Part shown: piece after piece, positions 2,863-62,273 of the stretch
Layout of the letters: every line of letters starts with the position of its first letter
How positions within the stretch are numbered: the first letter of the stretch is position 1
From: Vicinamibacteria bacterium
GTDB lineage: Bacteria; Acidobacteriota; Vicinamibacteria; Marinacidobacterales; Marinacidobacteraceae
DNA length: 64,000 bases
Assembly: GCA_963668695.2 (NCBI GenBank)
Contig: CAXXLQ010000004.1
Location: 96,001-160,000, forward strand
Reading direction: 5' to 3'
Program-made: the position numbers and the translations under genes
Notes under the pieces: generated by a model
Databases searched by the model: none
What the model was told of the DNA's origin: nothing
What the model saw: the letters and a program-made list of their open reading frames with translations, nothing else

Positions 2863-2878
2863 GGGCCGAAACCCCCAT

Positions 2879-2929
2879 CCGCGGGGGATTGGCCCGCGGG
2901 GGATTGGTCCGCGGGGGATTGGCCCGCGG
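2879..2929. repeat. 15-bp tandem repeat (CCGCGGGGGATTGGY x3) between convergent genes
   Basis: Read directly from the sequence. Confidence 0.8.
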
Positions 2930-2939
2930 ACCCCTGCCC

Positions 2940-11390: not shown

Positions 11391-11623
11391 CAGCCTGTGG
11401 TGAAACCCGGGTGAGCGCCGAGGCCGGTGAGGCCCAGTTCTCCCGGTGGGGCCAGTTCTCCCGGTGGGGGCCCGGCTGACAAGGCGCGTGAGGGAGGAGC
11501 CCCCACCGGGAGAACTGGCCCGGGTGTATTTCGACCGAAACGCAACGCAGAACGCAGCGAAGCGGAGTGGTTCAGCCGGGATGGATCGCCGGGCGAACGC
11601 CGTCTGGGTTTCATCACAGGCTG
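11391..11623. mobile_element. MITE (main family)
   Basis: TTAA|CAGCCTGTGGTGAAACCC...GGGTTTCATCACAGGCTG|TTAA; shares its left TTAA with the previous element. Confidence 0.85.
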
Positions 11624-11681
11624 TTAAAACCGCATCCCTTTCCCGAGGGGGAAGGGCGCGCGGGGAAACTACCCTAACGGG

Positions 11682-13283: not shown

Positions 13284-14564
13284 ATGCATCACTACCACGA
13301 CTCAACAGCCCGTGGCAAAACCCACGCGGCGTTCGACGGGCGATCCATCCCGGCTGAACCGCCCCGCTTCGCGGGGCTCTGCGTTGCGCTTCGGTCGAAA
13401 TACGTTCGGTATTCCTCCCTCGCGCGCCTTGTCAGCCGGGCGTCTCTCCCGTCTCGGCGCTCACGCGGGTTTCACCACGGGCTGTTCATGAGAGTTGCCG
13501 GAACCGGCATTGCCTGCGCCGCATTCCTGCTGGGATCGGCAGCCTGCGGAGGAAGCGAAATGGAAGAGCCGGCGGAGACCCAGGAAGCGGTTTCGGAGAA
13601 CGACGACTTCCCGAACCCGTTCACCGCCGAGGCCATGTGGGGCGAGCTGCCCGGCGAGCGCGGCTGGGGCGCCATCAGCGCGATCTATCCGGCGGTGGAC
13701 GGCAACATCTGGGCCGCCGAGCGGTGTGGCGCGAACTTCTGCGGCGACCGGCCCGACGTGGACACGATCGTCCTCTTCAGCCCCGGCGGCGAAGCGCTGA
13801 AGAGCTTCGGGGCCGGGCTCATCGCCTGGCCGCACGGGATGTTCGTGGATCACGAGGGGAACGTTTGGGTCACCGACGCGAAGGGTTTCGTGCCCGACGA
13901 GCGGGTGCCGGAGGGTCTCGGCCACTTCGTGATCAAGTTCAGCCCCGAAGGCGAAGTGTTGATGCGGCTCGGCGAGCCCGGGACGGCGGGGACCGCTGAC
14001 GGGCAGTTCAACATGCCCTCGGCCGTGCTGGTCGCGCCGAACGGCGAGATCTACGTGGCCGACGGTCATAACGCCGGCGGGAACAACCGCATCGTCAAGT
14101 TCTCGGCGGACGGCGAGTTCCTCATGAGCTTCGGGGAGACCGGCACCGGACCGGGGCAGTTCCGCGATCCGCACGCGCTGGCGATGGATTCCATGGGCCG
14201 CCTCTTCGTGGGCGACCGGGCGAACAACCGGATCCAGCTCTTCGACCAGGCAGGCAGCTTCATCGAGGAGTGGCTGCAGTTCGGCCGGCCGAGCGGGATC
14301 TTCATCACCGCCGACGACACGATCTACGTCGCGGATTCCGAGTCCACCTCGGAGGCGAATCCGGGCTTCGGGCGGGGCATCCGCATCGGGAGCGCGGTGG
14401 ACGGCACGGTGCACACCTACCTGCCGGACGACGTATCCGACCTCGAACCCGGCGCGGAGCCCGTGACCAGCGGGCCGGAAGGCATCGCGGTGGACGCCCA
14501 GGGGAGCGTCTACGGGGGCGAAGTCCGCCAGCAGATGGTCCGGAAGTTCACACGAAGCGAGTAG
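13284..14564 (+). CDS. NHL-repeat beta-propeller lipoprotein (PAL-like), with an in-frame MITE in the N-terminus
   Basis: GGAGG RBS before ATG 13284 (alternative start ATG 13488); lipobox SAAC; NHL repeats PHGMFVD, FNMPSAV, GQFRDPHALAMD, VGDRANNRIQ. Confidence 0.85.
   Translation: MHHYHDSTARGKTHAAFDGRSIPAEPPRFAGLCVALRSKYVRYSSLARLVSRASLPSRRSRGFHHGLFMRVAGTGIACAAFLLGSAACGGSEMEEPAETQEAVSENDDFPNPFTAEAMWGELPGERGWGAISAIYPAVDGNIWAAERCGANFCGDRPDVDTIVLFSPGGEALKSFGAGLIAWPHGMFVDHEGNVWVTDAKGFVPDERVPEGLGHFVIKFSPEGEVLMRLGEPGTAGTADGQFNMPSAVLVAPNGEIYVADGHNAGGNNRIVKFSADGEFLMSFGETGTGPGQFRDPHALAMDSMGRLFVGDRANNRIQLFDQAGSFIEEWLQFGRPSGIFITADDTIYVADSESTSEANPGFGRGIRIGSAVDGTVHTYLPDDVSDLEPGAEPVTSGPEGIAVDAQGSVYGGEVRQQMVRKFTRSE
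13306..13484. mobile_element. MITE inserted in frame within the NHL gene
   Basis: tcaa|CAGCCCGTGGCAAAACCC...GGGTTTCACCACGGGCTG|ttca; 179 bp + 4 bp = 183 bp, a multiple of 3. Confidence 0.8.
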
Positions 14565-14602
14565 CAGCCCGTCGCGCGGGTGTCGCCGCAGTCTCCTTCG
14601 AC

Positions 14603-15262
14603 GTGGACGGCACCGACAACGCCGCCAGTTCTCCCGGTGGGGGCCTTCAGACCGGCATCGCCTCGCACCGCGGGGCGAACTTCGCAGCCGTTTCCTTCGA
14701 CGTGGACGGCACCCTCTACGCGGACGGCTTTCTGCGGGCTCGGATCGCTCTCGAAGCCATCCGCCGCCTGAATCCGAGTTCCCTCCGGGATCTCTACCGT
14801 TTCGATAAACGCGCCGCCGCCGCGCGGGCCGCCGGGGGAGCACTCGACCCTTCCTGGGCTTCCACGATTCCCATCCGGCTCGAGGCGGAGGCTCGACTGC
14901 TGCTCCCGGTCATCCGGCGCCTGGGGCCCCGGGCCGGTGCGGCCGATCTCCTGACCCGCCTCCGGCCCCGCACCCTGATCGCCGTCTCGGACTTCGACGC
15001 GGAGGCCAAGCTGGAGGCGCTCGGCCTCCGCCATCACTTCGACCACACCTACGCCGCCGAGCGGTACGGCGCCCTCAAGCCCGATCCCTCCGTCTTCCGG
15101 GCCGCGCTCGCGGATCTCGGAATTGCTCCCTCCACCCTGCTGCATGTCGGAGACCGCCCGGACACCGACGGCCTCGCCGCCCGTGCGGCCGGCTGCCGCG
15201 CCCTCATCCTGGGCACCGACTTCGCCTCCTTTCGCGGACTCGGGGACCTGCTCGCCCCCTGA
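14603..15262 (+). CDS. HAD-superfamily hydrolase (start uncertain, duplicated N-terminal motif)
   Basis: FDVDGTLY, KPDP and HVGDRPDTDG motifs. Motif I is duplicated; the only nearby in-frame start is GTG 14603. Confidence 0.7.
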   Translation: MDGTDNAASSPGGGLQTGIASHRGANFAAVSFDVDGTLYADGFLRARIALEAIRRLNPSSLRDLYRFDKRAAAARAAGGALDPSWASTIPIRLEAEARLLLPVIRRLGPRAGAADLLTRLRPRTLIAVSDFDAEAKLEALGLRHHFDHTYAAERYGALKPDPSVFRAALADLGIAPSTLLHVGDRPDTDGLAARAAGCRALILGTDFASFRGLGDLLAP

Positions 15263-16698: not shown

Positions 16699-17736
16699 AT
16701 GAGTCGCCGAACATCGATCGCAGTGCTGGCCCTCGGGCTCACGTTGCTTTGGCCCGGATCACGCCTCGCCGCCCAGATCCCAGGCCTCCTGCTGAACGAG
16801 GCCGGTGAGGAGATCGTCGCCACCTTCTCGATCGTCGCGCGCGATCCAGGCACGGGAGAGCTGGGAGTCGCCGTGCAGTCGCGGGCGTTTCGCGCCGGAG
16901 CCATCGTTTCGTACGCCAAGGCGGGGGTCGGGGCGATCGCGACCCAGGCGGCGGCCAACCAGACCTACGGGCCGCGCGGGCTGGAACTCCTGGAGCTGGG
17001 GCTCTCGCCGGACGAGGTGGTCGAGCACCTGACCGGCTCGGATCCGGGGCGTGACCGCCGCCAGCTCGCCGTCATCGACGACCAGGGCCGGGTCCGGGCC
17101 TACACGGGATCGGCAACCAGCGCCTGGGCGGGACACCTCGAGGGCGAGAACTTCTCGGCTCAGGGCAACATCCTGGCTGGGGAAGCGGTGGTGCAGGCGA
17201 TGGCGGAGGCGTTCGAGGCGTCCGAGGGTCCGCTCGCACTTCGTCTGATGGACGCCCTCGATGCCGGCCAGGCCGCCGGGGGCGACGCGCGCGGCAAGCA
17301 GGCTGGCGGGGTTTTGGTGGTGAAGCCGATCGGCAACTCCGGCCGGACCACCCGGACCAGCGACCGCTGGGTGGACGTGCGCGTGGACGACCATGCCGAG
17401 CCGTTCAAGGAGCTGCGCCGCCTGGTCAACATGTCGGTTTCGCGAATTCACGCGAGCGAAGCCCGGACGCTGGCCGCGGAGGGCCGCTTCGACGAAGCCG
17501 TGGCGGCGCAGCAGGAAGCGATCGCGATCGTTCCCGGGGAGGATCAGCTCATCTACGGGCTGGCCCGGCTGTACGCCCGCGCGGGCGACGCCGCGGGCGC
17601 GGTGGCGACGCTCAAGCAAGCCATCGAAATCGACGCGCGCTGGCGAGGGCTGGCGGCGTCACAGGCCGACTTCGACAACATCCGCGATAACGCGGAGTTC
17701 CAGAGACTGCTTAACTCCAAAGGACCCCTGTCATGA
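16699..17736 (+). CDS. DUF1028 (Ntn-hydrolase-like) exported protein with C-terminal TPR-like repeats
   Basis: Signal peptide; TFSIVARD, GVAVQS, ATQA, QGNIL, AGGDARG and RVDDH motifs; helical TPR-like tail. Confidence 0.85.
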   Translation: MSRRTSIAVLALGLTLLWPGSRLAAQIPGLLLNEAGEEIVATFSIVARDPGTGELGVAVQSRAFRAGAIVSYAKAGVGAIATQAAANQTYGPRGLELLELGLSPDEVVEHLTGSDPGRDRRQLAVIDDQGRVRAYTGSATSAWAGHLEGENFSAQGNILAGEAVVQAMAEAFEASEGPLALRLMDALDAGQAAGGDARGKQAGGVLVVKPIGNSGRTTRTSDRWVDVRVDDHAEPFKELRRLVNMSVSRIHASEARTLAAEGRFDEAVAAQQEAIAIVPGEDQLIYGLARLYARAGDAAGAVATLKQAIEIDARWRGLAASQADFDNIRDNAEFQRLLNSKGPLS

Positions 17737-18254
17737 ACTATCGCCGAATCCCGCTGCTGTTCGCCCTGGCGCTGCTCCCGGGTTGCGCTGCCGACCCGGC
17801 CCCACCGGAGGCGACTGCCCCGGATGCCCCAAGTGCCCAGAATGCCCCGGATGCCCAGAATGCCCCGGATGCCCGAGAGCGGCACTACCTCAACCCCCGC
17901 TCGGCGGGAGACCCCGACGTGCCGCCCTTCAGCGGCGGCGTGATGGTGGGCGACACCTTCTACGTTGCGGGAACGATCGGGCTGGGCCCCGACCAGACGG
18001 TACCCGAAACCGCCCAGGAGGAGGCTCGCATCGTCCTCACCAACGTGCAAAACACCCTGGAGGCGGCCGGGCTGACTATGGACGACCTGGTGTCGGTTCA
18101 GGTCTACGCCTCGGATGTCGGGGACTATGACGCCTTCAACGAGGTCTATCGCACGTTCTTCACCCAGGAATATCCGGCGCGGGCATTCCTGGGTTCGGGC
18201 ACGTTGCTCTTCGGGGCGCGGTTCGAGGTGCTGGGGTTCGCGGTCAAGCGCTAG
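17733..18254 (+). CDS. RidA/YjgF/UK114 family protein with lipoprotein signal
   Basis: PFSGG, AFNEVY, YPARA and FEV motifs; lipobox LPGC; ATGA overlap with the upstream gene. Confidence 0.85.
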   Translation: MNYRRIPLLFALALLPGCAADPAPPEATAPDAPSAQNAPDAQNAPDARERHYLNPRSAGDPDVPPFSGGVMVGDTFYVAGTIGLGPDQTVPETAQEEARIVLTNVQNTLEAAGLTMDDLVSVQVYASDVGDYDAFNEVYRTFFTQEYPARAFLGSGTLLFGARFEVLGFAVKR

Positions 18255-18329
18255 GGCCGCTCGGAACACAGTCTCAGATTCGCGGTGCGCGTTCGTCCGC
18301 CTCCGGCGGACGATGCCGGCCGGACTCCC

Positions 18330-18413
18330 CCGCGCGCCTTGTCAGCCGGGCGCCTCGCCCCCACCGGGAGAACTGGCCGCGCTCGGCGCTCACCCGGGTT
18401 CCACCACCGGCGG
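18330..18413. mobile_element. Partial MITE overlapping the 3' end of the GH3 gene
   Basis: CGCGCGCCTTGTCAGCCGGG...CTCGGCGCTCACCCGGGTTCCACCACCGGCGG matches the family right end; left boundary unclear. Confidence 0.65.
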
Positions 18414-20003
18414 TTCCCCCTCTTCCCAGAGGCGCGGGTAGAAGGGCTGGAACTTGAACTGGGAGTCAACGTGGGCTGAGCCTCCACCGGAGGCGCGCGG
18501 AAGGAAGTCCGAGAGCTCAAGGGTTGAGCAGCGGACTCCACCGAGCCGGCGGCTCGCACGCTTGGCGCGGTATTCGAGGTTCTGATTCCCGAGAAGTTCA
18601 TCGAGCCGCTCGGGGAGGCCCTCGGGGAGGCCCTCGGGCAGGCCGCCGGGCTCGCGCGACGCCGGGCGGACCGCCGCGAGGTGGTAGCAGGGAAGCGCAT
18701 CTCCTGCGGGGTTCGAAGGAAAGAGCGCGAGCCAGAAACGCTTCCGGAGTCCCGGGAACTCGCAGTCCAGCGCCGAGAACGCGCGCTCAACGTGCCCGGC
18801 GGTGAGCTTTTCCCCGGTGAAGGACCAACCCAGGCCTCGCCGGCGGACAAAACGGAGATCCGGATGTCCGCCGACGAAGCGCGCGACCCGAAAAAGATCC
18901 CCGGTCGCGTAGCGCCGGAGGCCGAAACCGTGGCTCACCACCATTTCGTACGTCTCCCCCGGCCGCAGGTCGCTGGCGCCCAAGAGGCTTGCCTCGGATC
19001 CCAGGCTTGCCTCGGATCCCGGCTCGAGGAACTCGTAGAAGACGCCGGGTGCGGCCGGTAGGAACGCCGTCTCTCGCTCCCGGTAGTCGGGAACGGTCTC
19101 GATCGTCTCGGTGGACATCGAATACATCGGCTCCCGGGTGAAACGCGATGCGGGGAGGCGGCGGTCGAGCCGCTGCAGAAACGGACCCACCGCGCCTCCG
19201 GTCCAGCAGACGTAGGTCGTGACGCCGGGCGCCCAGGCCGTGATCGGCAGTGGCTCGGGACTTTCCGCCACCCGGAGGAGCCGCTTCCGCGATCCCATCG
19301 AAGCGAGCTTCCGGAGGAGCCGCCAGACGGACGGGTGCAGGCGCTCAGGTTCCCGGACGACCCGCCGAACGAGCGCGGAAGCGTTCTCCCAATCGGCGTC
19401 GAGCTCTTCGAAGAACCCGCTCAGCGTGGAGGGGTTCGTTGCGTAGAGGACTCCCGGATTCGACAAGGTGAGGACCAGGAGACGAAGCGCGGCCGCGCCG
19501 TACTGCTCTTTCAGATCCTTAAGCGCCGGATCCGACTGCGCCCGGTAGGGCGCCTGCAGCAGGATGAACCACGGAGGCGCGCGGCGCTCGCTGACGAGCA
19601 ACCAGCTCAGCGAGCGATCCGGATCGAGAGCGCCGAAGACGTAGAGGCTGGGACGCCGGATCCGCCGGCGCGCGACGAGGCGAAGCATCCCGTCCACGAA
19701 AACGCCGCGGGTCGCCGAGAGCCGCTGTCGCGGGTACGCGACGCGCTTGGGCTCGCCCGAGGTGCCGGAGGTGAGCGCCACGGGGGTCCCCGCCCCGTCA
19801 CCCGAATCCGCGGAAGGCAGTTCCCGGGTGAGCGGCGTCGCGGGGGTGATTCCAAAGCGCCGCCGCAGCCGCCTTTCCCGGAGCGGATGGATCGTCAGAC
19901 GTACGCGGTGGCGAAGGACGGCCGCCCGCCCCGCCAGCCGCAGCACGAGTGCGATCGCTGCGCGTCCGAGGTCATTCGCGAGGCCCCGGGCCTCGCGGCT
20001 CAT
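18390..20003 (-). CDS. GH3-family acyl-adenylate/amide ligase
   Basis: GH3-type motifs TSGTSGEPK, YSMSTE, FYEF, YATGD and GEK. ATG 20003; the further upstream ORF extension is MITE sequence. Confidence 0.8.
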   Translation of the reverse strand: MSREARGLANDLGRAAIALVLRLAGRAAVLRHRVRLTIHPLRERRLRRRFGITPATPLTRELPSADSGDGAGTPVALTSGTSGEPKRVAYPRQRLSATRGVFVDGMLRLVARRRIRRPSLYVFGALDPDRSLSWLLVSERRAPPWFILLQAPYRAQSDPALKDLKEQYGAAALRLLVLTLSNPGVLYATNPSTLSGFFEELDADWENASALVRRVVREPERLHPSVWRLLRKLASMGSRKRLLRVAESPEPLPITAWAPGVTTYVCWTGGAVGPFLQRLDRRLPASRFTREPMYSMSTETIETVPDYRERETAFLPAAPGVFYEFLEPGSEASLGSEASLLGASDLRPGETYEMVVSHGFGLRRYATGDLFRVARFVGGHPDLRFVRRRGLGWSFTGEKLTAGHVERAFSALDCEFPGLRKRFWLALFPSNPAGDALPCYHLAAVRPASREPGGLPEGLPEGLPERLDELLGNQNLEYRAKRASRRLGGVRCSTLELSDFLPRASGGGSAHVDSQFKFQPFYPRLWEEGEPPVVEPG

Positions 20004-20030
20004 CGGGGTCGAACTTGGGGCCGAACTTGG

Positions 20031-20262
20031 CCGCCGGTGGACAGAGCCAGGCGGCCCAGTTCTCCCGGTGGGGGCTCGGCCGGCGATCCATCCCGGCTGA
20101 GCGCTGCGCCCCACTTCGCTCGTCGTTGCGCATCGGTCGAAATAACCCGGGCCAGTTCTCCCGGTGGGGGCTCCTCCCTCGCGCGCCTCGTCAGCCGGGC
20201 GCCTCGCCCCCACCGGGAGAACTGGCCGGCCTCGGCGCTCACCTTGCTCTGACCACAGGCAC
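20031..20262. mobile_element. MITE inserted in the last codons of the condensation-like gene
   Basis: ttgg|CCGCCGGTGGACAGAG...CTCTGACCACAGGCAC|ccag; the interior matches other copies in reverse orientation. Confidence 0.8.
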
Positions 20263-21537
20263 CCAGGGCTGTCCGGACCGGACGAACGGCGGATCAACCA
20301 GGGGGGCCACAAAGGCGGCAGCGATGAAGTCAATGTCTTCCTCGCGGAGGAGGGCCGGGTCCCAGGTGATCGTGACCACGGTCTGGTCGGCCTGGGACAT
20401 GGCGGCGAAGTAGAGCGGATGCTGCCGGTGGAGGCAGGCGATCACCTCCATGCCCGAAACGTCCTGGAGCACCGGCTCGTCGTCACCGGGCCAGTGCTCG
20501 AGGTGCGTGAACCCGGCGGTGCCGAAGTCCGCCCACGACCGGTAGATCCATCGGCGGAGCAGGGGGGCCGCGAAAGGAAACAGCGAAGCGGGAACTGGCA
20601 GAGAGGGAACTGCCCACTCTCCCGCCCGTTTCTTCCGGTACACCATCCGGCGAACCGAGCGGCAGCGCTCCAGAAAGGCCCGGCTCTTCACGGCAGAAAC
20701 CGGCTCGCGGTGAACCCGGATCCGCGACGCACCGTTCCCGAAGCCTCGGAGGCGATCCTCCCGCACGTTCACCGGCACCCAAAGCCCGATTCGATTCCCG
20801 GACAGCCCCTGATGCTCGTTCCAGGCCGCCAGCGCGTCGAGCGCCGCCGCCAGCAGGCAGTCGTTCCAGCGGAATCCACCGACCGTTTTGGACAGGGAGG
20901 CGAGAGGCTCGCGGGGCACGGACACCGTACGCCAGCAGCGGCTCGCCGAAGCAGGCCCGGGACGCGTCGCGAGCGCGGCCGAGGTTCCGGAATCCGGGTT
21001 GCGACGGGCGCCCTTCGGCGCCTCCAGCAGTTTGAGCGATCCGGTCTGGGGGCGCGGGGTCATGGTGTCCAGGCCGCGCGCCATCCGTAGCTGCCGCTGC
21101 ACGAACAGCAGCGTGCCGATCAGGTCCGCGGCGGCATGGTGCACCTGGGTGACGAGACTCCAGGAGGGAGGGTCTCCGGTGCCGAGCAGCATTTGCCTGA
21201 GCGGTGGCCCCTCCTCGAGGGGAAAGGGAATCTCGAGAAACTCCTGGATCCGGGCGACGCGCTCCCCCTCCGGAAAAACCCGGATCGCCAGGGATGGCGA
21301 AGCGCCGGGCCGCGGCTCCCACATCGGTACATCGAACGGCGGCCGGCAGAGCCGGCTCGTGGACACCGGGAACAACTCCCCAGCGCCCTGAGTCCCGGCG
21401 TACAGCGGCCCGAAGTCCGTCACCGCATGCGACGACCGGCCCAGATCGAGCACCAGGGCGTAGTCCAGGGGCCGCTCCGGCGAGTCCGCGAGCAGACACG
21501 CCAGGTCGGGCGTGGCGAGCGGGATGCGTCCGGTCAG
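20239..21537 (-). CDS. Stand-alone condensation-domain / CoA-dependent acyltransferase-like protein
   Basis: HHAAAD (HHxxxD) motif, WNDCLLAA and VPVNVR...FGN features of the C-domain/PapA5/WS-DGAT fold. Start uncertain; CTG 21537 overlaps the desaturase stop. Confidence 0.7.
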   Translation of the reverse strand: MTGRIPLATPDLACLLADSPERPLDYALVLDLGRSSHAVTDFGPLYAGTQGAGELFPVSTSRLCRPPFDVPMWEPRPGASPSLAIRVFPEGERVARIQEFLEIPFPLEEGPPLRQMLLGTGDPPSWSLVTQVHHAAADLIGTLLFVQRQLRMARGLDTMTPRPQTGSLKLLEAPKGARRNPDSGTSAALATRPGPASASRCWRTVSVPREPLASLSKTVGGFRWNDCLLAAALDALAAWNEHQGLSGNRIGLWVPVNVREDRLRGFGNGASRIRVHREPVSAVKSRAFLERCRSVRRMVYRKKRAGEWAVPSLPVPASLFPFAAPLLRRWIYRSWADFGTAGFTHLEHWPGDDEPVLQDVSGMEVIACLHRQHPLYFAAMSQADQTVVTITWDPALLREEDIDFIAAAFVAPLVDPPFVRSGQPWVPVVRAR

Positions 21538-22394
21538 ACGGCTTCCGGCGGCGCTTCGCGCCAGATGTCGCGGCGCGGAATCCGGCGCCGCTCGGGGTCG
21601 CGCTCGACAAGCTGGTGAAGCTCGACCCAGGCGAGATGCGGCCTCAGGTGGTGTTCTCGGTGCATGGACAGTCCGGAGGAAAACCAATACGCCAATCGGC
21701 CGAAGTAGTTGTGGGAGCGCGCCGCGGGATCACCGGTGGAATAGCCCTCATGGGTGAGATGGGCGAAAGGAATCCAGAGCACGAGCGACACGAGTACGCA
21801 GACCGGCAGGGTCCCCGACACCACCCGCCAAGGACCCACCAGCATGGCCACCAGAAGATAACAGGCCGCGATGGCCAGATAGTTCACCGCCAGATCGCGT
21901 CCATGGCCCGGAGGCAGTCCGCCGCGGCGGCGAATCCAGAAGAACCATTGGTGCGGCATCGCCACCGCCCGGAAGGGAAGCTGCCACTTATGGGGAGTGT
22001 CCAGGAACAGGTCCGGATCCTTCCCCGGCTCGTTGGTGTGGCGGTGGTGCTGGAGATGGGTGCCCCGGAAGTTCGTGAACGGAACGAGACAGGGCAAAAG
22101 AGCCAGCCGGCCCCAGAAGGCATTGGTTTTCCGCGACCGGCCGAGGAGGCCGTGGACGCCTTCGTGGGCCATTACGGTGCCGATGAAGGCCAGCCAGCTC
22201 CGGAACAGGATGTCCGCCGTCCAACCCCACCAGGTGGTGGGAACCACCAGCAACCCGGCGAAGCTCAACGCCAGGAGCGACACGATCACCGTGCGGCTGA
22301 GCAGGTGGACCCGGCGGACCGGCCAGCGACGAAGTCCGGCCGGAACGGAGGGAGAATGGACACCGGAAACCTCTTCGGACCGGTTTCGATTCAT
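21534..22394 (-). CDS. Membrane fatty acid desaturase family protein
   Basis: Three His boxes HEGVH, HLQHH and HREHH with TM segments. ATG 22394 (alternative GTG 22400). Confidence 0.88.
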   Translation of the reverse strand: MNRNRSEEVSGVHSPSVPAGLRRWPVRRVHLLSRTVIVSLLALSFAGLLVVPTTWWGWTADILFRSWLAFIGTVMAHEGVHGLLGRSRKTNAFWGRLALLPCLVPFTNFRGTHLQHHRHTNEPGKDPDLFLDTPHKWQLPFRAVAMPHQWFFWIRRRGGLPPGHGRDLAVNYLAIAACYLLVAMLVGPWRVVSGTLPVCVLVSLVLWIPFAHLTHEGYSTGDPAARSHNYFGRLAYWFSSGLSMHREHHLRPHLAWVELHQLVERDPERRRIPRRDIWREAPPEAV

Positions 22395-22430
22395 GGCCAC
22401 CTGCTACACCCCTTCCGATCTTGACTCTAG

Positions 22431-22628
22431 CAGCCTGTGGACAAGGTCACGCGGCGTTCGGCTGGCGATGCATCCCGGCTGAACCGCGCCTCTGTGAGGC
22501 GCTCATCGTTGCGCTTCGGTCGAAATACACCAGGTATTCCTCCCGCGCGCGCCTTGTCAGCCGGGCGCCTCGCCCCCACTGGGAGAACTGGCCAGCCTCG
22601 GCGCTCACGCCACTTTGTCCACAGGCTA
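22431..22628. mobile_element. MITE with perfect CTAG duplication
   Basis: CTAG|CAGCCTGTGGACAAGG...CTTTGTCCACAGGCTA|CTAG. Confidence 0.9.
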
Positions 22629-22712
22629 CTAGCATTCGCCATACCTCGAGACGGACCGCCGGCAGCCTGCGCGCCAGCGGCCGAATTCCTGGAAGAAGGA
22701 GGGAAGCGCTCC

Positions 22713-25700
22713 ATGCCCCCAGCACACTTTGACATCGGCTCCGCACCCGTGACCGGCGGGCGCCGGAAACGCGCGGCGTTGCTCGCCGCCGCCCTCCTGC
22801 TGGCCGCCGGTTTCGCCGCCGGCCAAACCGCGGATCCGGATACCGGGCCGGTTGCCACCGCGATCGAGGGACTGAAGCTCCGCGGGATCGGCCCCGCCCT
22901 GATGGGAGGCCGGATCGCCGACATCGCCGTGCACCCGCAGCGGCGCTCCACCTGGTACGTGGTGGTGGGTTCCGGCGGGCTCTGGAAGACCGAAAACAGC
23001 GGCACCACCTGGAAGCCGGTCTTCGACGAATACCCCTCCTACTCCATCGGCACCGTAGCCCTCGATCCTTCGAACCCGGAAGTCGTGTGGATCGGCACCG
23101 GAGAGAACGTGAGCGGACGCCACGTCGGCTGGGGCGACGGGGTGTATCGCAGCCGTAACGGCGGCGCCTCCTGGGAGCAGGTGGGCCTCGCCGGCTCGCA
23201 GCACATCGGCAAGATCCTGGTGGATCCGCGGGATGGGGACACCGTCCTGGTGGCCGCCGAGGGGCCGCTGTGGAACGGAGGGGGCGAACGCGGCGTGTAC
23301 CGGACCGAGGACGGCGGCGCCACCTGGACCCGCACGCTCGATCTCGGCCCCGACACCGGCGCGACCGATCTGGAGTTCGCTCCGGGCGACCCGGACACCG
23401 TCTATGCCGCGGCCTACCAGCGCCGGCGCCACGTGTGGTCGTTCCTGGCCGGAGGACCCGGCTCCGGGATCCACAAGTCCGACGACGGCGGCCGGACGTT
23501 CCGAAAGATCACGAAGGGCCTGCCGAAGGGCGACGTCGGGAAGATCGGCCTCGCGGTGACCCCGGCGGATCCCGGGCTCGTCTACGCGACCATCGAGGCC
23601 GACGAGGAGGAACGCGGCTTCTACCGCTCCGGGGACCGGGGCGAGAGCTGGGAGCGGCGCAGTCCCTACGTGTCGGGAGGCACCGGGCCGCACTACTACC
23701 AGGAGATCGAAGCGTCTCCGGCCGACCCGGACCTCGTGTACCAGATGGACGTCTTCTTCCACGTGACCCGGGACGGCGGCAAGACCTTCGACTACCTCGG
23801 CACCGGACGCGAAAAGCACAGCGACAACCACGCGATCTGGATCGATCCCGACGACCCCGGCCACCTGCTCGGCGGCACCGACTCGGGGCTTTACGAAACG
23901 TTCGACGAGGGAGTGACCTGGCGGCACTTCCCGAACATGCCCGTCTCCCAGTTCTACAAGGTGGCGCTCAGTAACGCCGAACCCTTCTACGACCTCCTCG
24001 GGGGGGCGCAGGACCTCGGGTCGGTGCACGGTCCTTCGCGCACCCAGAACAGGGAAGGGGTCCGGAACCGCGACTGGTACGTGCCGCTCGGGGCGGACGG
24101 CTACGGCGTGCAGATCGATCCGCGCGACCCGAACATCCTCTATCTGATGACCCAGCAGGGGAATCTCTATCGCGCCGACCGGCGGAGCGAGGAGACGCTG
24201 CACATCCAGCCGCTGGCCGCCCCCGGCGAACCACCGGAACGCTGGAACTGGGACTCCCCGATCCTGATCAGCCCGCACGACGCGGACCGGCTGTACTTCG
24301 GGTCGCAGCGAGTGTGGCGGAGTGAGAACCGGGGCCAGTCGTGGACCGCGGTCAGCGGGGACCTGACCACCGGCCGGAACCGCTACGAGCTCCCCTTCTA
24401 CGACCGGATCTGGAGCGTGGACGCCCTGCACGACACGGCGGCCATGTCCCGCTACGCGACGCTGACCGCGATCTCCGAGTCGCCGGTGGCGGAGGGCGTG
24501 CTCTTTACCGGAAGCGACGACGGACTGGTCCACGTCAGCACCGACGGCGGGGCGAACTGGAGCCGGGCGGCGGCGCTTCCGGAACTCCCGGCCCTCGCCT
24601 TCGTCAACGACGTCGAGGCGTCCCAGCACGACCCGGACACCGTGTTCGTGGTGGCCGACAACCACAAGATGGGCGACTTCCGGACGTATCTGTTCCGCAG
24701 CCGGGACCGCGGGGCGTCTTGGGAGTCCATCGCCGGGGACCTGCCCGACGGGACCATCGTCTGGGCCATCCAGCAGGATCACCGGGACCCGGACCTGCTG
24801 TTCCTGGCAGCCGAGTACGGGCTCCACGTCTCGTGGAACGGCGGGACGAACTGGGTGAAGCTGAAGGGCGCCCCGACGATTTCGTTCCGCGACGTGAAGG
24901 TGCAGCGGCGGGATGACGACCTGGTCGGCGCCACCTTCGGTCGGGGGTTTTACGTCCTGGACGACTACGCGCCGCTCCGGGAAATGGCCGCCGCGGTCCG
25001 CGCCGGCGAATCCACGCTCTTCCCGCTGCGCGACGCCTGGTGGTACGTGCCGTCGGTTCCGGCCCAGGCCCCGGGCCGTCCCACCCAGGGAAGCACCGCC
25101 TTCGTGGCGGACAACCCGCCGTTCGGCGCGGTGCTGACCTACTACCTCGCCGAGGACCTGAAGACGGCGAAGGAGGAGCGGCAGGCCGGCGAGAAGGAAG
25201 CGCGGGAGAGCGGCGCCGACATCCCCTTCCCCGGATTCGACACGCTCCGGATCGAGGAACTGGAAGAGGATCCCGCGGTGTTCGTGGTGATCCGGGACGC
25301 GAACGGAGCGCCGGTCCGGCGGGTCGCCGGATCCCCGAAGAAGGGCGTCCACCGGGTGGCCTGGGACCTCCGGGGCCCGGCGCCCAACCCGATCACCTTC
25401 CAGGAGCCGGGGTTCACCCCTCCCTGGGTGCGCCCGCCCCAGGGACCGCTCAGGGCGCCGGGCGAGTACTCCGCGCAGCTCGTCGCGGTGACCCGTGACG
25501 GCGCCCGCAACCTCGGGGAACCGCAGCGCTTCCGGGTCAAGCCCGTGCCGAACCTCCCCGAGGGCACCGATCCGGCGGCGGTGGCCGCCTTCCAGCAGGA
25601 GACGGCCAGCCTGCTCCGAGCGATCCACGGGGCCGCGGCCGAGGCCGGCCGGGTCCGGGAGCGGATCCGCCACCTGCGGGCGGCCCTCAAGGAAACCCCC

Positions 25701-26036
25701 CAGGCGGACGAAGCGCTCTTCGGGCGGATGGACGCCGTCCTCAGGACGCTCTCGGACCTGGAAGTCCGGCTGAACGGCGACCCCGCTCGCGGTTCGCGGA
25801 ACCACCCGGCGGCGCCCTCCATCCGGGAGCGGGTCGGGGGCATCGCGGGCGGCCACTGGGACACCCGCCAGACGCCCACCGAGACCCAGCGCGAAAGCCT
25901 CCGCATCGCGGCCGGGGAGTTCGAAGGACTGCGGGGCGAGTTGCGGTCGCTCGTCGACGAGGACCTGGCCGGGCTCGAAGCGGACCTCGAAGCCGCCGGG
26001 GCTCCGTGGACCCCGGGGAGGAAGATCCCGAGATAG
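22713..26036 (+). CDS. VPS10/sortilin-like BNR (Asp-box) repeat exported protein, putative glycosyl hydrolase
   Basis: Signal peptide, LRGIGPALMGGRI, many SxDxGxTW Asp-boxes, C-terminal coiled coil; GGAGG RBS before ATG 22713. Confidence 0.85.
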   Translation: MPPAHFDIGSAPVTGGRRKRAALLAAALLLAAGFAAGQTADPDTGPVATAIEGLKLRGIGPALMGGRIADIAVHPQRRSTWYVVVGSGGLWKTENSGTTWKPVFDEYPSYSIGTVALDPSNPEVVWIGTGENVSGRHVGWGDGVYRSRNGGASWEQVGLAGSQHIGKILVDPRDGDTVLVAAEGPLWNGGGERGVYRTEDGGATWTRTLDLGPDTGATDLEFAPGDPDTVYAAAYQRRRHVWSFLAGGPGSGIHKSDDGGRTFRKITKGLPKGDVGKIGLAVTPADPGLVYATIEADEEERGFYRSGDRGESWERRSPYVSGGTGPHYYQEIEASPADPDLVYQMDVFFHVTRDGGKTFDYLGTGREKHSDNHAIWIDPDDPGHLLGGTDSGLYETFDEGVTWRHFPNMPVSQFYKVALSNAEPFYDLLGGAQDLGSVHGPSRTQNREGVRNRDWYVPLGADGYGVQIDPRDPNILYLMTQQGNLYRADRRSEETLHIQPLAAPGEPPERWNWDSPILISPHDADRLYFGSQRVWRSENRGQSWTAVSGDLTTGRNRYELPFYDRIWSVDALHDTAAMSRYATLTAISESPVAEGVLFTGSDDGLVHVSTDGGANWSRAAALPELPALAFVNDVEASQHDPDTVFVVADNHKMGDFRTYLFRSRDRGASWESIAGDLPDGTIVWAIQQDHRDPDLLFLAAEYGLHVSWNGGTNWVKLKGAPTISFRDVKVQRRDDDLVGATFGRGFYVLDDYAPLREMAAAVRAGESTLFPLRDAWWYVPSVPAQAPGRPTQGSTAFVADNPPFGAVLTYYLAEDLKTAKEERQAGEKEARESGADIPFPGFDTLRIEELEEDPAVFVVIRDANGAPVRRVAGSPKKGVHRVAWDLRGPAPNPITFQEPGFTPPWVRPPQGPLRAPGEYSAQLVAVTRDGARNLGEPQRFRVKPVPNLPEGTDPAAVAAFQQETASLLRAIHGAAAEAGRVRERIRHLRAALKETPQADEALFGRMDAVLRTLSDLEVRLNGDPARGSRNHPAAPSIRERVGGIAGGHWDTRQTPTETQRESLRIAAGEFEGLRGELRSLVDEDLAGLEADLEAAGAPWTPGRKIPR

Positions 26037-27461
26037 GAACTCCACGCTCTGGCGGGGTCTGTTGCGGGGACTCCACGCTGGAGCGGGGCCGGCGGACGGG
26101 AACTCCACGCCGGAGCCGCGAAGCTCCACGCTGGAGCGGGGCCGGCGGGCGGGAACTCCACGCTGGAGCCGCCGAACTCCACGCTGTAGTGGGATCTGCC
26201 GGCGGGAACTCCACGCTGGAGCCGCCGAACTCCACGCTGGAGTGGGATCTGCTGGCGGGAACTCCACGCTGGAGCCGCCGAACTCCACGCTGGAGCAGGA
26301 TCTGTTGGCGGGAACTCCACGCTGGAGCCGCCGAACTCCACGCTGGAGCGGGATCTGCCGGCGGGAACTCCACGCTGGAGCCGCCGAACTCCACGCTGGA
26401 GCAGGATCTGCCAGCGGGAACTCCACGCTGGAGCCGCCGAACTCCACGCTGGAGCAGGATCTGTTGGCGAGAACTCCACGCTGGAGCCGCCGAACTCCAC
26501 GCTGGAGCAGGGATCTGTTGGCGGGAACTCCACGCTGGAGCCGCCGAACTCCACGCTGTGAGCGGGATCTGCTGGTGGGAACTCCACGCTGGAGCCGACG
26601 AACTCCACGCTGTAGCAGGATCTGCTGGCGGGAACTCCACGCTGGAGCCGCCGAACTCCACGCTGGAGCAGGATCTGTTGGCGGGAACTCCACGCTGGAG
26701 CCGCCGAACTCCACGCTGTAGCGGCATCTGTCGGCGGGAACTCCACGCTGGAGCCGCCGAACTCCACGCTGGAGCGGGATCTGCTCGGCGGGAACTCCAC
26801 GCTGGAGCCGCCGAACTCCACGCTGGAGCAGGATCTGTTGGCGGGAACTCCACGCTGGAGCCGCCGAACTCCACGCTGGAGCGGGTCTGCTGGCGGGAAC
26901 TCCACGCTGGAGCCGCCGAACTCCACGCTGGAGCGGGATCTGTTGGCGGGAACTCCACGCTGGAGCCGCCGAACTCCACGCTGGAGCGGGGTCTGTCGGC
27001 GGGAACTCCACGCTGTAGCCGCGGAACTCCACGCTGTAGCGGGATCTGTTGGCGGGAACTCCACGCTGGAGCCGCCGAACTCCACGCTGGAGCGGGATCT
27101 GTTGGGGAACTCCACGCTGGAGCCGCCGAACTCCACGCTGGAGCGGGGTCTGCTGGTGGGAACTCCACGCTGGAGCCGCGGAACTCCACGCTGGAGCGGG
27201 ATCTGTTGGCGGGAACTCCACGCTGGAGCCGCCGAACTCCACGCTGGAGCAGGATCTGTTGGCGGGAACTCCACGCTGGAGCCGCCGAACTCCACGCTGG
27301 AGCGGGGCCGGCGGACGGAACTCCACGCTGGAGGGGGTTCGGCGGATGGGGACTCCACGCTGGAGGAGGTGGAACTCCACGCTGGAGCCGCGAAGCTCCA
27401 CGCTGAAGCGGGTTCGGCGGGCGGGAACTCCACGCTGGAGCCGCGAAGCTCCACGCTGGAG
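26037..27461. repeat. Tandem array of ~54 GAACTCCACGCTGGAG cores in a ~53-bp dimeric unit
   Basis: Cores alternate with a 5-bp linker (CCGCC) and a ~16-bp linker (CRGGATCTGYYGGCGG). The array starts immediately after the TAG stop at 26036. Confidence 0.95.
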
Positions 27462-27646: not shown

Positions 27647-28372
27647 CTAACGGACCGCCCGCGAGTACCACCCGCCCCACGCCGCCTTCCACCGCCGGAA
27701 TACCGCGATGAAGAGCGGGTTGGTCCAGATCAGGATCTTCCACAGCGGCCACTGGTCGAAGCGGCGGCACGAGGGCCGGACGGGCGGTTCTCGGATCCGC
27801 CGGATTCGCCGTCCGGTCTTCCGCCCGAGCCGCCCGAGACGCCAGACGAAGTCCACGTCTTCGCCGATCCACGTCCGCTCGTCGTATCCACCCACCTGTT
27901 CGAAGGCGTCCCGGCGAGCGAACTGCGCGGCCCCCAGCACCATCCCCGTGAGCCGGACGAGAAGCCACCAGGCGCCCAGGTAGAGCCTCACCGAGAGGCG
28001 CCGCGCCCGCCAGGTTGTCTCCACGCCTCCCCCGATGCACGCCGGATCGCTCATCGCCTCGTGGATCCGGATCAGGAACTCCGGCGGGACGATCACGTCC
28101 GCATCCACAAAGACCAGCACGTCCCCGCTCGCCCGGCGCGCCCCGGCGTTCCGGGCCCGGGCGATGACCTGCACCGGCTCGTGGACCACCGTGGCGCCCC
28201 GCTCGCGGGCAATCGACGCGGTCCGGTCGCGGCTGTTGTTGTCCACGACGATCGTTTCAACTTCTGCGCCGGCCTGGGCCCACAGCGCCTCCGCGGCAAT
28301 CCGGAGCGAGTCGAGCGTCGGCCCCAGGTACGCCTCCTCGTTGAAGGCGGGGACGACAACGGAGAACTTCAC
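27647..28372 (-). CDS. Glycosyltransferase family 2
   Basis: FSVVVPAFNEE, VVDNNSRD, ARNAGA, FVDAD and GEDVD motifs; GTG 28372 chosen as start. Confidence 0.9.
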   Translation of the reverse strand: MKFSVVVPAFNEEAYLGPTLDSLRIAAEALWAQAGAEVETIVVDNNSRDRTASIARERGATVVHEPVQVIARARNAGARRASGDVLVFVDADVIVPPEFLIRIHEAMSDPACIGGGVETTWRARRLSVRLYLGAWWLLVRLTGMVLGAAQFARRDAFEQVGGYDERTWIGEDVDFVWRLGRLGRKTGRRIRRIREPPVRPSCRRFDQWPLWKILIWTNPLFIAVFRRWKAAWGGWYSRAVR

Positions 28373-28472
28373 TAAGCTCGGATCAGCGCCCTCCGGTGTA
28401 CGAATCAATCACCACGTCAGCGATTTCATTCACGTGGTGAATAGCTGGGAACTCCAGGTCGCACCGGGCAAT

Positions 28473-28543: not shown

Positions 28544-28834
28544 TCAGACATGGCGCTGGGCATCCATTTTGGCGTGCAGAACCCGAACGATGACCAGACC
28601 CTCGGACCCCGGCAGATAGAACACGACATGCGAACGAAACTCGTACCGCCGCAACCCCGGTGCAAGGGATTCGGCACTTCGGCCTAGTCCGAGGTTGCCG
28701 ACCAAACGCTCACAGCACGCATGGAGCCCGTCGAAGTAGCTGCGCGCCTGTTCGAGTCCGAAGCGTCCCGCGGTGTATTCGAAAATCCCATCCAGGTCTG
28801 CCGCCGCGCGACGCGTCAGCCTATAGGCGGCCAT
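28544..28834 (-). CDS. parE: Type II toxin, ParE/RelE family
   Basis: YRLTRRAAADLDGIFEYT...FGLEQA...HVVFY...IVRVLHAKMD; overlaps the antitoxin gene. Confidence 0.88.
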   Translation of the reverse strand: MAAYRLTRRAAADLDGIFEYTAGRFGLEQARSYFDGLHACCERLVGNLGLGRSAESLAPGLRRYEFRSHVVFYLPGSEGLVIVRVLHAKMDAQRHV

Positions 28835-29078
28835 CACGCCGAAGCCGCGCTTCGCCTTCCTCAGCAATCTGCGAGATCGTCCGATCGCTCATCCCGCTTT
28901 CCAGCCCTTCCTGGATCGCCGCCTGGAGGACATGGAATGAGGCATCACTCTCGCGGTCGCGCCGGATCAGGTCGCGGATGTATTCGCTGTCGTTGGTGAA
29001 GCGACCGGCCGCGATCTGGGTCTTCACCCACTGATCCTGTTGACTGGTCAGTGTGATGGTCTTCCGGACTGTGGGCAT
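28821..29078 (-). CDS. parD: Type II antitoxin, ParD (ribbon-helix-helix) family
   Basis: TITLT...GRFTNDSEYIRDLIR...AIQEGLESG motif. Confidence 0.88.
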   Translation of the reverse strand: MPTVRKTITLTSQQDQWVKTQIAAGRFTNDSEYIRDLIRRDRESDASFHVLQAAIQEGLESGMSDRTISQIAEEGEARLRRDGRL

Positions 29079-37853: not shown

Positions 37854-37954
37854 CAGGGTAAGACCTCCTTGCTCTGAACTCGCGGAGCAGACGCTCAGCG
37901 GCCTCGATTGTAAGTGTCAGAGCGCGGTACCCTCTCGCGGAGCCGGCGGCCTAG

Positions 37955-38151
37955 CAGCCTGTGGATGAAGTGGCGTGAGTGCCGAGGCGGGCGAGGCGCC
38001 CGGCTGACAAGGCGCGCGAGAGAGGAATACCGAGTGTATTTCGACCGCAGCGCAACGATGAGGGCCGCGAAGCGGCACGTTTCAGCCGGGATGCATCGCC
38101 CGCCGAGCCCCCACCGGGAGAACTGGGCCGCGTGACTTTGTCCACAGGCTG
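37955..38151. mobile_element. MITE with perfect CTAG duplication at a CapA-like gene stop
   Basis: CTAG|CAGCCTGTGGATGAAG...CTTTGTCCACAGGCTG|CTAG. Confidence 0.9.
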
Positions 38152-39252: not shown

Positions 39253-39338
39253 GAATTGGCGCCCCTCGTTGGGTCTCTAATCAATGCGATCCGCTGACGC
39301 CAAAGGTTCGATGTCCGGCTCATGCTGAAGGCCTCGGT

Positions 39339-42197: not shown

Positions 42198-42334
42198 TTC
42201 ATACTCTCCACGGGACACCCCAACGCTGACAAGAAGCCGACTAGTTTCACTGCCAGGACGACTTACGACGCCGACCCAGCCTCCGCAGCCTCGTTTTCGT
42301 TTACCGGCGAACCCTTTGATCATGAGTCTCCCAG

Positions 42335-42350
42335 CATGCCTATATGCATG
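42335..42350. promoter_or_regulatory. Near-palindromic candidate operator CATGCCTATATGCATG
   Basis: 16-bp palindrome with one mismatched pair in the divergent intergenic region; overlaps a TTGACA on the minus strand. Confidence 0.4.
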
Positions 42351-42685
42351 TCAAACGGGAAGGTTGGCCAGGGCAGATAGCGCTGAGGGGCCCCTTGCGC
42401 TCGTTCCCGAAGGGGGATCCCTTGTACGACCATACTTCGGGGCAGGATCGTACATTGGATCCTTCCACCGGGGAGGTTGTATCGTCGAACGAACCCTGGG
42501 CTCGGCGTCCTCATCGGTCAAACACTGCTGGTACTCTCGCTTCATTCTCGACCGCGCCTCCGCGCACCGAGACGCCCCTGGTGCCTCTCACCATGATCGG
42601 ACCCCATGATCGGACCCCTCGCCACCCCATGATGCTTACCGTGGTGGGACGTGTCGATCGCAGCGGGAGGGGGATCGCGTCGGGG

Positions 42686-44861: not shown

Positions 44862-44886
44862 GGACGGCTCCGGACCTCAAGGAACC

Positions 44887-62269: not shown

Positions 62270-62273
62270 TTAA

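Follow-up and report, generated by a model that had tools for sequence, protein, structure and literature searches.

A conserved gene trio of uncultured Acidobacteriota and allied bacteria encoding a GH3-like ligase, a condensation-fold protein and a membrane di-iron oxygenase: a candidate route to an amino-lipid

Introduction

The closest described counterpart of the system reported here is the ornithine lipid pathway of the planctomycete Singulisphaera acidiphila. According to excerpts of the original report (PMC12493201), the GH3-like enzyme OlsH acylates ornithine to N-acyl ornithine, using a free fatty acid, ATP and Mg2+ and neither coenzyme A (CoA) nor acyl carrier protein (ACP), the alpha/beta-hydrolase OlsI then adds an ester-bound fatty acid, and OlsG, encoded in the same operon, methylates the head group; the excerpted text of a review (PMC12971839) points the same way on amide formation by GH3 enzymes. 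OlsH, cited there as UniProt L0DAW6, showed activity in extracts only, and the tree of the OlsH paper (its Fig. 9) includes sequences from Acidobacteria. Here we describe three neighbouring genes from a stretch of 64,000 nucleotides (nt) of contig CAXXLQ010000004.1 of a Vicinamibacteria bacterium (the window, to whose positions all coordinates refer unless a locus is named). Gene 1 encodes an oxygenase, gene 2 a condensation-like protein and gene 3 a GH3-like ligase. The trio is one conserved unit with tight linkage and co-evolution, and we tentatively read it as a carrier-independent route to a hydroxylated or desaturated acyloxyacyl amino-lipid, one that would work like OlsH and OlsI in outline, yet without the feature that defines OlsI.

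Compared by motifs and operon make-up, not by identity, the trio resembles the OlsH/OlsI system in having a bacterial GH3-like adenylating enzyme with three GH3 nucleotide motifs, encoded in an operon together with a putative acyltransferase and a putative lipid-modifying enzyme and with no ACP or CoA ligase gene. It differs in having a condensation-fold protein in place of the alpha/beta-hydrolase as partner of the ligase, a PF00487 di-iron oxygenase in place of the methyltransferase as putative modifier and a HAD hydrolase as the recurrent accessory, and in its hosts, which are Acidobacteriota and their allies, not Planctomycetota. The annotated genes around the trio, in the window and in the sampled loci, include no alpha/beta-hydrolase, the place next to the ligase gene being taken by that of the condensation-fold protein, and the window has no gene for a head-group methyltransferase of the OlsG type.

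Other papers, also available as excerpts, touch on single aspects of the trio. The Legionella pneumophila GH3 protein Lol1 (lpg2225) is suspected of joining a modified ornithine to a lipid chain, which is a proposed function (PMC5640695). Like gene 3, it is a bacterial GH3, and it belongs to a lipid or polyketide cluster, but the lol cluster, as far as the excerpts describe it, encodes an ACP, KS-III enzymes and CoA ligases of its own and no condensation-like or PF00487 gene. Some cultured Acidobacteria, though not the lineages of the trio, have ornithine lipids (PMC6252331), and bacteria are known to make N-acyl amino acids whose head groups are modified (PMC12479983, PMC12856293). Our literature searches returned no description of the trio or of the gene 2 family, the nearest hits being the OlsH paper, its review and the paper on the Legionella lol cluster; one preprint that matched the search was discarded, as it concerned glycoside hydrolases and not GH3 ligases. 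A first-pass annotation of the window, made from its sequence, had proposed the three genes as a compact biosynthetic operon and had called bacterial GH3 proteins largely uncharacterised. The latter statement needs the exception of OlsH, the only biochemically characterised one found in these searches.

Results

Conservation and co-evolution of the trio

A genome scan with an alignment of gene 2 matched 296 stretches, 86 of which encode relatives; 80 were kept as loci L001-L080. All 80 carry the titles of metagenome-assembled genomes (MAGs), and the state of the trio in each was determined by tblastn and extension of open reading frames (ORFs). The full trio, in the same order and on the same strand, was present in 64 of the 80 loci. 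Eight others (L009, L024, L026, L055, L059, L061, L071 and L074) are cut by a contig end and are consistent with the trio, L052 has the oxygenase split into two blast pieces that are still adjacent, and in L075 genes 2 and 3 form one ORF of 962 amino acids (aa). In two loci of Gemmatimonadota (L060 and L077) the oxygenase gene lies on the other strand, after the GH3 gene, and one member is missing from four (L015, L023, L034 and L042); in L015 the downstream genes include one for an integrase and one of the AbiEii type. The lineages with loci are Vicinamibacteria/Marinacidobacterium, Bryobacterales/Terriglobia, Pyrinomonadaceae, unclassified Acidobacteriota, Gemmatimonadota, Latescibacterota and Myxococcota. 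The nearest fetched locus, L001, belongs to a MAG titled Candidatus Marinacidobacterium sp. (Acidobacteriota) and shares 91-95% aa identity with the window over the three genes.

FastTree trees were built from 67 GH3 sequences and from the matching 67 gene 2 sequences. Among the 34 GH3 branches with support of at least 95, 32 recur in the gene 2 tree, and no partner swapping was seen between the two trees. Patristic distances of GH3 and gene 2 correlated with r 0.955 over 67 rows, although kinship of sequences inflates such correlations, and identities to the window proteins correlated between genes with r 0.96-0.97 over 66 loci. The genes thus co-occur elsewhere, which the first-pass annotation had named as the point on which the proposed operon would stand or fall, together with the profile searches described below, which do not assign the three genes to unrelated functions.

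That the genes are mere neighbours without a shared pathway is highly improbable and was already disfavoured. A repeat separates two of them in the window, and four loci are each without one member, but colinearity is kept in 64 of the 80 loci and in several phyla, the relatives typically have overlapping junctions, and the trees are congruent.

As a separate observation, the GH3 copies from outside the Acidobacteriota (L045 from Latescibacterota, L060 and L077 from Gemmatimonadota) lie towards the Pyrinomonadaceae in the GH3 tree, and L045 is nested in a group of that family (support 93). Either lateral transfer of the trio or wrong binning could account for their placement.

The GH3-like ligase

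Gene 3 matched GH3_M (PF23571) with 53.1-53.5 bits against a cut-off of 23.6, at E 2.6e-14 for the 537-aa protein and 3.5e-14 for the longer ORF 18390-20333 that had been listed for the window. That ORF is too long, as the alignment of relatives backs the start given in Table 1. The two GH3 end domains stayed under their cut-off of 23.6 (PF03321, 13.2 bits; PF23572, 12.0 bits), while relatives at 43-50% identity carry PF03321 and/or PF23572 in precomputed annotation and are called "GH3 auxin-responsive promoter family protein" by NCBI. JAR1 and other plant GH3 chains matched gene 3 by sequence at about 3e-8. The nucleotide motifs of GH3 enzymes, defined in the excerpts of PMC12493201 as SSGTSxGxxK-, YxSSE- and GLYRYRxGD-like, are present as TSGTSGEPK, PMYSMSTE and GLRRYATGD, so the GH3 motifs read from the sequence at first pass are borne out, and residues T78, S79, G80, S297, T298, E299, G361, R364, Y365, T367 and D369 are invariant in 20 relatives.

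In the AF2 model of gene 3, whose predicted local distance difference test (pLDDT) value is 84.5, a conserved N-terminal helical hairpin (residues 3-49, modelled with high confidence) precedes the GH3 core, and the 537-aa protein has no extra domain. A Foldseek search with this model returned plant GH3 amido synthetases at all ranks from 1 to 28 (4.8e-19 to 3.9e-13, template modelling (TM) scores up to 0.62), whereas PaaK and other CoA ligases or ANL ligases appeared only from 1e-9, ten orders of magnitude weaker. The predicted fold is that of GH3 enzymes, in which a large N-terminal domain is joined to a small C-terminal one, and is closer to GH3 than to other ANL enzymes.

The condensation-fold protein

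No Pfam family matched the gene 2 protein even at E<=10, so that PF00668, PF03007 and PF06974 are all absent. Its HHAAAD motif lies at 21141-21124. H133 and D138 do not vary among 22 family members, nor does the GFGN-SRIR block, and H134 is retained by at least 90% of them; the residue after HHAAAD is L and not G, and L075 has HHAALDG. The AlphaFold model (pLDDT 87.7, predicted TM score 0.90) is a complete two-lobed condensation fold with no extra domain on the 432-aa protein. Foldseek with this model gave 322 matches in the PDB at E<=0.001, and the best 37 of these were C, E, X and Cy domains, free-standing C-like enzymes and the wax ester synthase/diacylglycerol acyltransferase (WS/DGAT). 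The top structural match was AzeD at 3.7e-21, with the dehydrating C domain of AmbE near the top; SgcC5 was also among the matches, as was the WS/DGAT structure 6chj at 2.6e-17.

By sequence the family stands apart. A word-indexed search found 46 related clusters, all named only "hypothetical protein" and none with a Pfam domain. An exhaustive profile search of 1.84 billion entries gave 127 representatives at E<=1e-30, 434 at E<=1e-10 and 2415 at E<=1e-3; proteins of 4,650 and 6,179 aa in its weak tail, matched over a stretch of the size of a C domain, are probably non-ribosomal peptide synthetases (NRPS). Judged from these searches, the gene 2 protein is a separate small family without a Pfam model. 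The "stand-alone condensation-like acyltransferase" of the first-pass annotation therefore stands at the level of the superfamily, HHxxxD motif included, but profiles place the protein neither in WS/DGAT nor in PF00668. Likewise, the superfamilies guessed at first pass for all three proteins were upheld by profile and fold searches, and the structure prediction then recommended gave the condensation fold for gene 2 and the GH3 fold for gene 3.

Two kinds of known enzyme are nearest to gene 2. With WS/DGAT it shares the two-lobed condensation/CAT fold, a length of about 430-450 aa and the HHxxxD motif; it differs in a score far under the family cut-off, in the lack of PF03007 and PF06974, and in the L where WS/DGAT has G after the motif. 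The free-standing NRPS-type enzymes and C domains (AzeD, 8s6l; SgcC5, 4znm) provide the best folds, with E from 1e-17 to 4e-21 and TM scores of 0.6-0.69, and AzeD and SgcC5 have the same stand-alone architecture as gene 2. AzeD is a dehydratase according to the title of its structure entry, and we take SgcC5 and the canonical NRPS C domains to form an ester or amide at the HHxxxD site. Unlike the C domains, gene 2 has no PF00668 match and no carrier protein or NRPS adenylation domain nearby, and the adjoining enzyme that would adenylate is a GH3. The gene 2 profile (A1) reached C-domain chains weakly, at 1.5e-4 to 1e-3.

The likeness to WS/DGAT brings in a pathway to neutral-lipid esters, in which the GH3-like enzyme would only activate a fatty acid (through acyl-AMP to acyl-CoA or acyl-ACP), gene 2 would be an O-acyltransferase of the WS/DGAT type, and the product would be a wax ester, a triacylglycerol or another O-acyl ester whose chains the oxygenase desaturates. 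The only profile that matched gene 2 is indeed that of WS/DGAT (TIGR02946, at 3.9e-8), the A1 profile reached 6chj at 2.1e-4, and GH3 belongs to the ANL adenylating superfamily, acyl-CoA ligases being among its weaker fold matches. However, the TIGR02946 match covers the C-terminal half with 32.6 bits against a cut-off of 309.95, no WS/DGAT domain of Pfam was matched, and structures of the NRPS C type match gene 2 equally well or better. In addition, the GH3 enzymes described in the excerpts of PMC12493201 and PMC12971839 form amides and not CoA thioesters. We regard this pathway as unlikely.

The AzeD match would also fit a small N-acyl amino acid or a lipopeptide-like signal or surfactant, not a membrane lipid. 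GH3 would then make the first amide, gene 2 would make a second amide or ester or would dehydrate or otherwise modify the head group, and the oxygenase would modify the amino-acid part. The top fold match of gene 2 is a stand-alone modifying C-like dehydratase, AmbE is also close, the NCBIfam model of GntB, a membrane di-iron arginine hydroxylase, was matched by 2 of 20 oxygenase homologues, and N-acyl amino acids with modified head groups have the bacterial precedents cited above. Yet no exporter, regulator or typical secondary-metabolite gene was found within 3 kb on either side of the window trio, nor in most sampled relatives; inheritance is largely vertical within whole orders, which is more typical of envelope lipids; and a fusion of the HAD domain to an MMPL transporter in one locus (described below) points to lipid export. 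A signal or surfactant is, in our judgement, distinctly unlikely.

The membrane di-iron oxygenase

Gene 1 matched PF00487 at E 2.6e-23 (83.6 bits, cut-off 29.7). Three His boxes had been recognised at first pass, and they are in place and conserved: HEGVH at 22166-22152, HLQHH at 22058-22044 and HREHH at 21662-21648. Seven box residues (H79, H83, H115, H118, H119, H250 and H251) do not vary among 20 homologues, nor do H217 and H230, and the eighth, H247, is retained by at least 90% of them. Hydrophobic segments at residues 31-58 and 169-217 are typical of an integral membrane protein.

The closest NCBIfam models for the window protein were CrtR (1.4e-11) and CrtW (4.4e-8), ahead of DesB and DesA. 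Among the 20 homologues, CrtR was the best model for every one (best E 8.1e-16), always far below its cut-off, and CrtW was matched by 16, DesA by nine and DesB by six. Since CrtR and CrtW outrank DesA and DesB across the family, we call gene 1 a di-iron oxygenase and not specifically a desaturase; it is perhaps a hydroxylase. The "unsaturated" product proposed at first pass is accordingly uncertain.

The same models raise the possibility of carotenoid or isoprenoid tailoring, in which the oxygenase would hydroxylate a carotenoid ring and gene 2 would esterify the hydroxyl with a fatty acid activated by GH3. Hydroxylase, acyl activation and acyl transfer form a coherent logic, and the trio oxygenase shares with CrtR and CrtW the HxxxH, HxxHH and HxxHH boxes and a short chain (about 280 aa, with model lengths of 297 and 257 positions). 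Its scores, however, reach about 10% of what the equivalog models demand (44 vs 475 for CrtR, NF045688; 32.7 vs 350 for CrtW, NF045690), as they also are about ten-fold below cut-off for the acyl-lipid desaturase models DesB and DesA; it has the extra invariant histidines H217 and H230; no carotenoid gene occurs among the annotated neighbours in the window or the sampled loci; and the recurrent partners are instead the HAD gene, a second DesA/B-like desaturase and a PlsC-type acyltransferase. We consider carotenoid tailoring improbable.

Accessory genes

The HAD hydrolase, suggested as an accessory by the first-pass annotation, is a real associate of the trio and the only accessory gene recurrently linked to it. 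Orthologues of its conserved part (14645-15262) lie within the flanks of 43 of the 80 loci, where the gene is usually convergent and starts within about 200 nt of the GH3 stop; in L079 it follows the GH3 gene directly on the same strand, and in the window it is found further downstream, 3.1 kb from the GH3 gene and beyond three unrelated genes. The protein is a small soluble HAD of type IA, nearest to sugar- or metabolite-phosphatase models, and a PDB sequence search gave generic HAD-IA matches only. Such a recurrent enzyme would fit the pathway to neutral-lipid esters, where it would supply the alcohol acceptor by dephosphorylation, for example of phosphatidate to diacylglycerol, but no lipid-phosphatase model was matched when the HAD protein was compared with profile models.

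In L078 (10926-13910, minus strand) a 994-aa protein, encoded convergently to GH3, fuses an MMPL/HAE3 transporter (HpnN-like, with a sterol-sensing domain) to a HAD domain, which hints at a tie between the HAD step and lipid export. We counted this fusion, together with the integral membrane nature of the oxygenase and a PlsC-type acyltransferase beside the HAD gene in L039, for an amino-lipid as the product; a PlsC-type gene is likewise found beside the HAD gene in L044.

The window copy of the HAD gene is rearranged at its 5' end. An in-frame insertion of about 120 nt with the core of the dispersed repeat described below (14585-14715) is bordered by a direct duplication, in which the catalytic DxDxT peptide occurs again, and no canonical start lies between GTG 14270 and the DxDxT motif. 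In L001 and L003 the gene starts at an ATG within the repeat-derived piece, and L002, L004 and L006 are without the insertion. The window copy may be impaired.

A carrier protein, which the first-pass annotation had not seen at the trio, was not found in a wider sample either: 69 ORFs of 65-130 aa from 15 diverse loci, all lying within 3 kb of the trio, included no PP-binding protein. The GT2 gene of the window (27647-28408), also put forward as an accessory, was rejected, as it occurs in only five of the 80 loci, four of them close relatives. Several other genes recur in parts of the sample. A conserved protein of 270-285 aa lies beside the HAD gene in 19 loci; its methyltransferase matches are marginal (E 0.0026-0.058), and a PDB sequence search with it gave nothing at E<=0.1. 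A second DesA/B-like desaturase of 441 aa is present in nine loci. A 235-aa ferritin-like protein with weak DUF892/COQ7 matches (e.g. L049:10754-11461) follows the GH3 gene on the same strand in 16 loci, mostly of Pyrinomonadaceae and unclassified Acidobacteriota. The HAD gene is absent from this ferritin-like sub-clade, and in L049 an ORF with a HIT domain (L049:11507-11899, minus strand) lies just past the ferritin-like gene. Cluster atlas look-ups returned unnamed or generic clusters only.

Gene junctions and a fused ORF

The overlapping stop and start codons noted at first pass were found at the first junction of the window trio and not at the second. Genes 1 and 2 overlap as CTGA, CTG 21537-21535 lying over TGA 21536-21534, and no ATG, GTG or TTG occurs between 21687 and the conserved N-terminus of gene 2. 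The same arrangement is present in all of the 15 closest loci, L001-L015. In nine of these (L005, L007, L008 and L010-L015) there is no canonical start from 200 nt upstream to 60 nt downstream, and in the other six a canonical start is found only 33-153 nt upstream or 42-60 nt downstream. Because it is common to the window and these loci, we attribute CTGA to the lineage rather than to an error; it suggests that translation of gene 2 in the window clade either initiates at CTG or is coupled by termination and reinitiation. In other lineages an ATG, GTG or TTG overlaps the upstream stop by 4 nt. A fusion of genes 1 and 2 by readthrough or frameshift was considered less likely than either of these mechanisms, since the frames differ by -1 without a visible slippery run and ordinary overlaps of the ATGA/GTGA type occur elsewhere.

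Genes 2 and 3 are separated in the window by a spacer of 235 nt (stop at 20239, ATG at 20003). The spacer is shorter in L001, and in L002-L014, except L009 with its contig end, the two genes overlap by 4 nt. In the relatives both junctions are usually 4-nt overlaps.

L075 goes one step further. Its positions 2837-5725 hold an uninterrupted ORF in which genes 2 and 3 are joined by a linker of about 25 aa. It is the sole fusion of its kind among the 80 loci, and a search for longer, fused relatives of gene 2 found none, which is weak evidence by the tool's own account; faulty assembly or a frameshift in this one MAG contig could have produced the fusion. The single L075 protein nevertheless can be cited for a "C-A" pair free of carrier protein, in which gene 2 would take its acyl donor directly from the acyl-adenylate made by GH3 and would, with the membrane hydroxylase, produce a previously unrecognised class of amino-lipid. 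We find this idea quite doubtful. If it were true, it would represent a fourth, independent route to acyloxyacyl amino-lipids and a lipid characteristic of uncultured Acidobacteriota, which could explain unassigned aminolipids in environmental lipidomes.

Layout of the window locus and the dispersed repeat

The coordinates of the trio and its associated features are collected in Table 1. As described at first pass, the three genes are co-oriented; they lie on the minus strand inside 18390-22400. A plus-strand Sortilin/BNR gene diverges from the trio from about 22437, and a plus-strand RidA gene (17733-18254) converges on it from downstream; flanked in this way, the trio is therefore a self-contained unit. 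The G+C content of the window is about 69%. Its other genes form an ordinary chromosomal context, without lipid or carotenoid genes among the annotated neighbours. A scan of 18000-22900 for promoters and terminators gave no promoter-like site and four terminator-like sites, with 3.7 expected by chance.

Table 1. Trio genes, repeat copies and HAD gene in the window
Feature	Position	Strand	Remarks
Gene 1, membrane di-iron oxygenase, FA_desaturase superfamily	21534..22400	-	PF00487 match; 288 aa from GTG 22400 (ATG 22394 also possible)
Gene 2, free-standing condensation-fold acyltransferase-like protein	20239..21537	-	432 aa if the start is CTG 21537; HHAAAD and GFGNGASRIR motifs; no Pfam family
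Gene 3, GH3-family adenylating amide ligase-like protein	18390..20003	-	537 aa from ATG 20003; PF23571 match
Spacer between gene 2 stop and gene 3 start	20004..20238		carries a copy of the dispersed MITE-like repeat
Full repeat copy with 21-nt terminal inverted repeats	22427..22632		in the divergent intergenic region upstream of the oxygenase gene
Partial repeat copy	18323..18411		overlaps the GH3 stop codon
HAD-IA hydrolase gene	14270..15262	+	PF00702 at 6.1e-18; conserved part about 14645-15262

The repeat that separates genes 2 and 3 is about 200 nt long and resembles a miniature inverted-repeat transposable element (MITE), with its terminal inverted repeats and an internal perfect hairpin of 22 nt. 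The spacer copy spans about 20071-20260 and contains the perfect 22-nt inverted repeat 20150-20171 / 20206-20227. At least 12 diverged copies are present in the window; besides the three listed in Table 1 there are about 10 further sites, for example at 10-212, 11392-11626, 13306-13450, 37951-38155, 55980-56200, 62020-62455 and 63595-63814, and more copies in L001-L003; the site of the full copy upstream of the oxygenase gene is likewise occupied in L002 and L003. The stop codons of genes 2 and 3 fall inside the edge of the repeat. Rfam gave no match at the gathering threshold in the whole window, nor in 18200-22700 at E<=1, and the repeat is therefore not a known RNA family.

A second repetitive element of the window lies between the Sortilin/BNR gene and the GT2 gene. 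It is a tandem array of 1.4 kb (26070-27461) with a period of 53 nt, 26.3 copies and 89% matches, each unit of which has two copies of a short palindromic core. The array is unlike clustered regularly interspaced short palindromic repeats (CRISPR), because its spacers repeat as well, and it gives rise to a spurious antisense ORF of 1590 aa (22629-27401). Elsewhere, the window encodes a ParE-family toxin (28544-28867), three PGA_cap genes with a gamma-glutamyltranspeptidase and an asparaginase (34606-46104), an AAA_15/AAA_21 ATPase (51287-52825) and an ankyrin-repeat protein (55151-55933).

Discussion

From families, motifs, folds and linkage we infer a pathway of three steps, set out here in a possible order. 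First, the GH3-like enzyme would adenylate a free fatty acid with ATP and then use it to acylate an amino acid or amine at its amino group, as OlsH does for ornithine. Second, the membrane di-iron enzyme would oxidise the lipid, hydroxylation being more likely than desaturation; it may create the hydroxyl that is to be acylated, or it may decorate the finished lipid. Third, the condensation-fold enzyme would use its HHxxxD site to esterify that hydroxyl with a second acyl group, for which acyl-CoA or acyl-ACP is the probable donor, in parallel with the role of OlsI or OlsA in ornithine lipids. The HAD-IA hydrolase would serve as an accessory phosphatase, and in some lineages the second DesA/B-like desaturase and the marginally methyltransferase-like protein may act as accessories too. 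The product would be an N-acyl amine or amino-acid lipid with a second, ester-bound acyl chain. The unsaturated N-acyl amide or ester lipid or signal proposed by the first-pass annotation was a conjecture as to its type, and the idea of an N-acyl amide is strengthened by the OlsH precedent (PMC12493201, as excerpted).

We consider such a carrier-independent route to an acyloxyacyl amino-lipid to be somewhat short of probable, as several points weigh against it. An alpha/beta-hydrolase partner of the OlsI type is absent from the window and the sampled loci. A thioester donor, which enzymes of the condensation fold normally require, is not encoded at the trio. The phosphatase has no obvious role in an amino-lipid pathway, and the best model matches of the oxygenase are carotenoid enzymes. 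In the window genome expression is not assured, since the repeat interrupts the operon and the 5' end of the HAD gene is rearranged. All 80 loci come from MAGs, and therefore there is no lipid chemistry with which they could be matched. Finally, in a survey of RefSeq reference genomes at >=30% identity and >=70% coverage to OlsH, the only order of Acidobacteriota listed in the excerpted text is Acanthopleuribacterales (PMC12971839), so the GH3 clade of the trio may be distant from OlsH; alternatively, the MAGs may simply be missing from the survey set.

GH3-dependent bacterial lipid synthesis has one worked example, OlsH/OlsI, published in 2025, and the trio would be the second, differently built. 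It brings in a protein family without a Pfam model, that of gene 2, from bacteria known here only as MAGs. If the product is a membrane amino-lipid, the trio would provide a new biosynthetic route and a gene marker for phosphorus-free lipids in environmental lipidomics, and its carrier-free pair of amide- and ester-forming enzymes might be of use for making N-acyl amino-acid surfactants.

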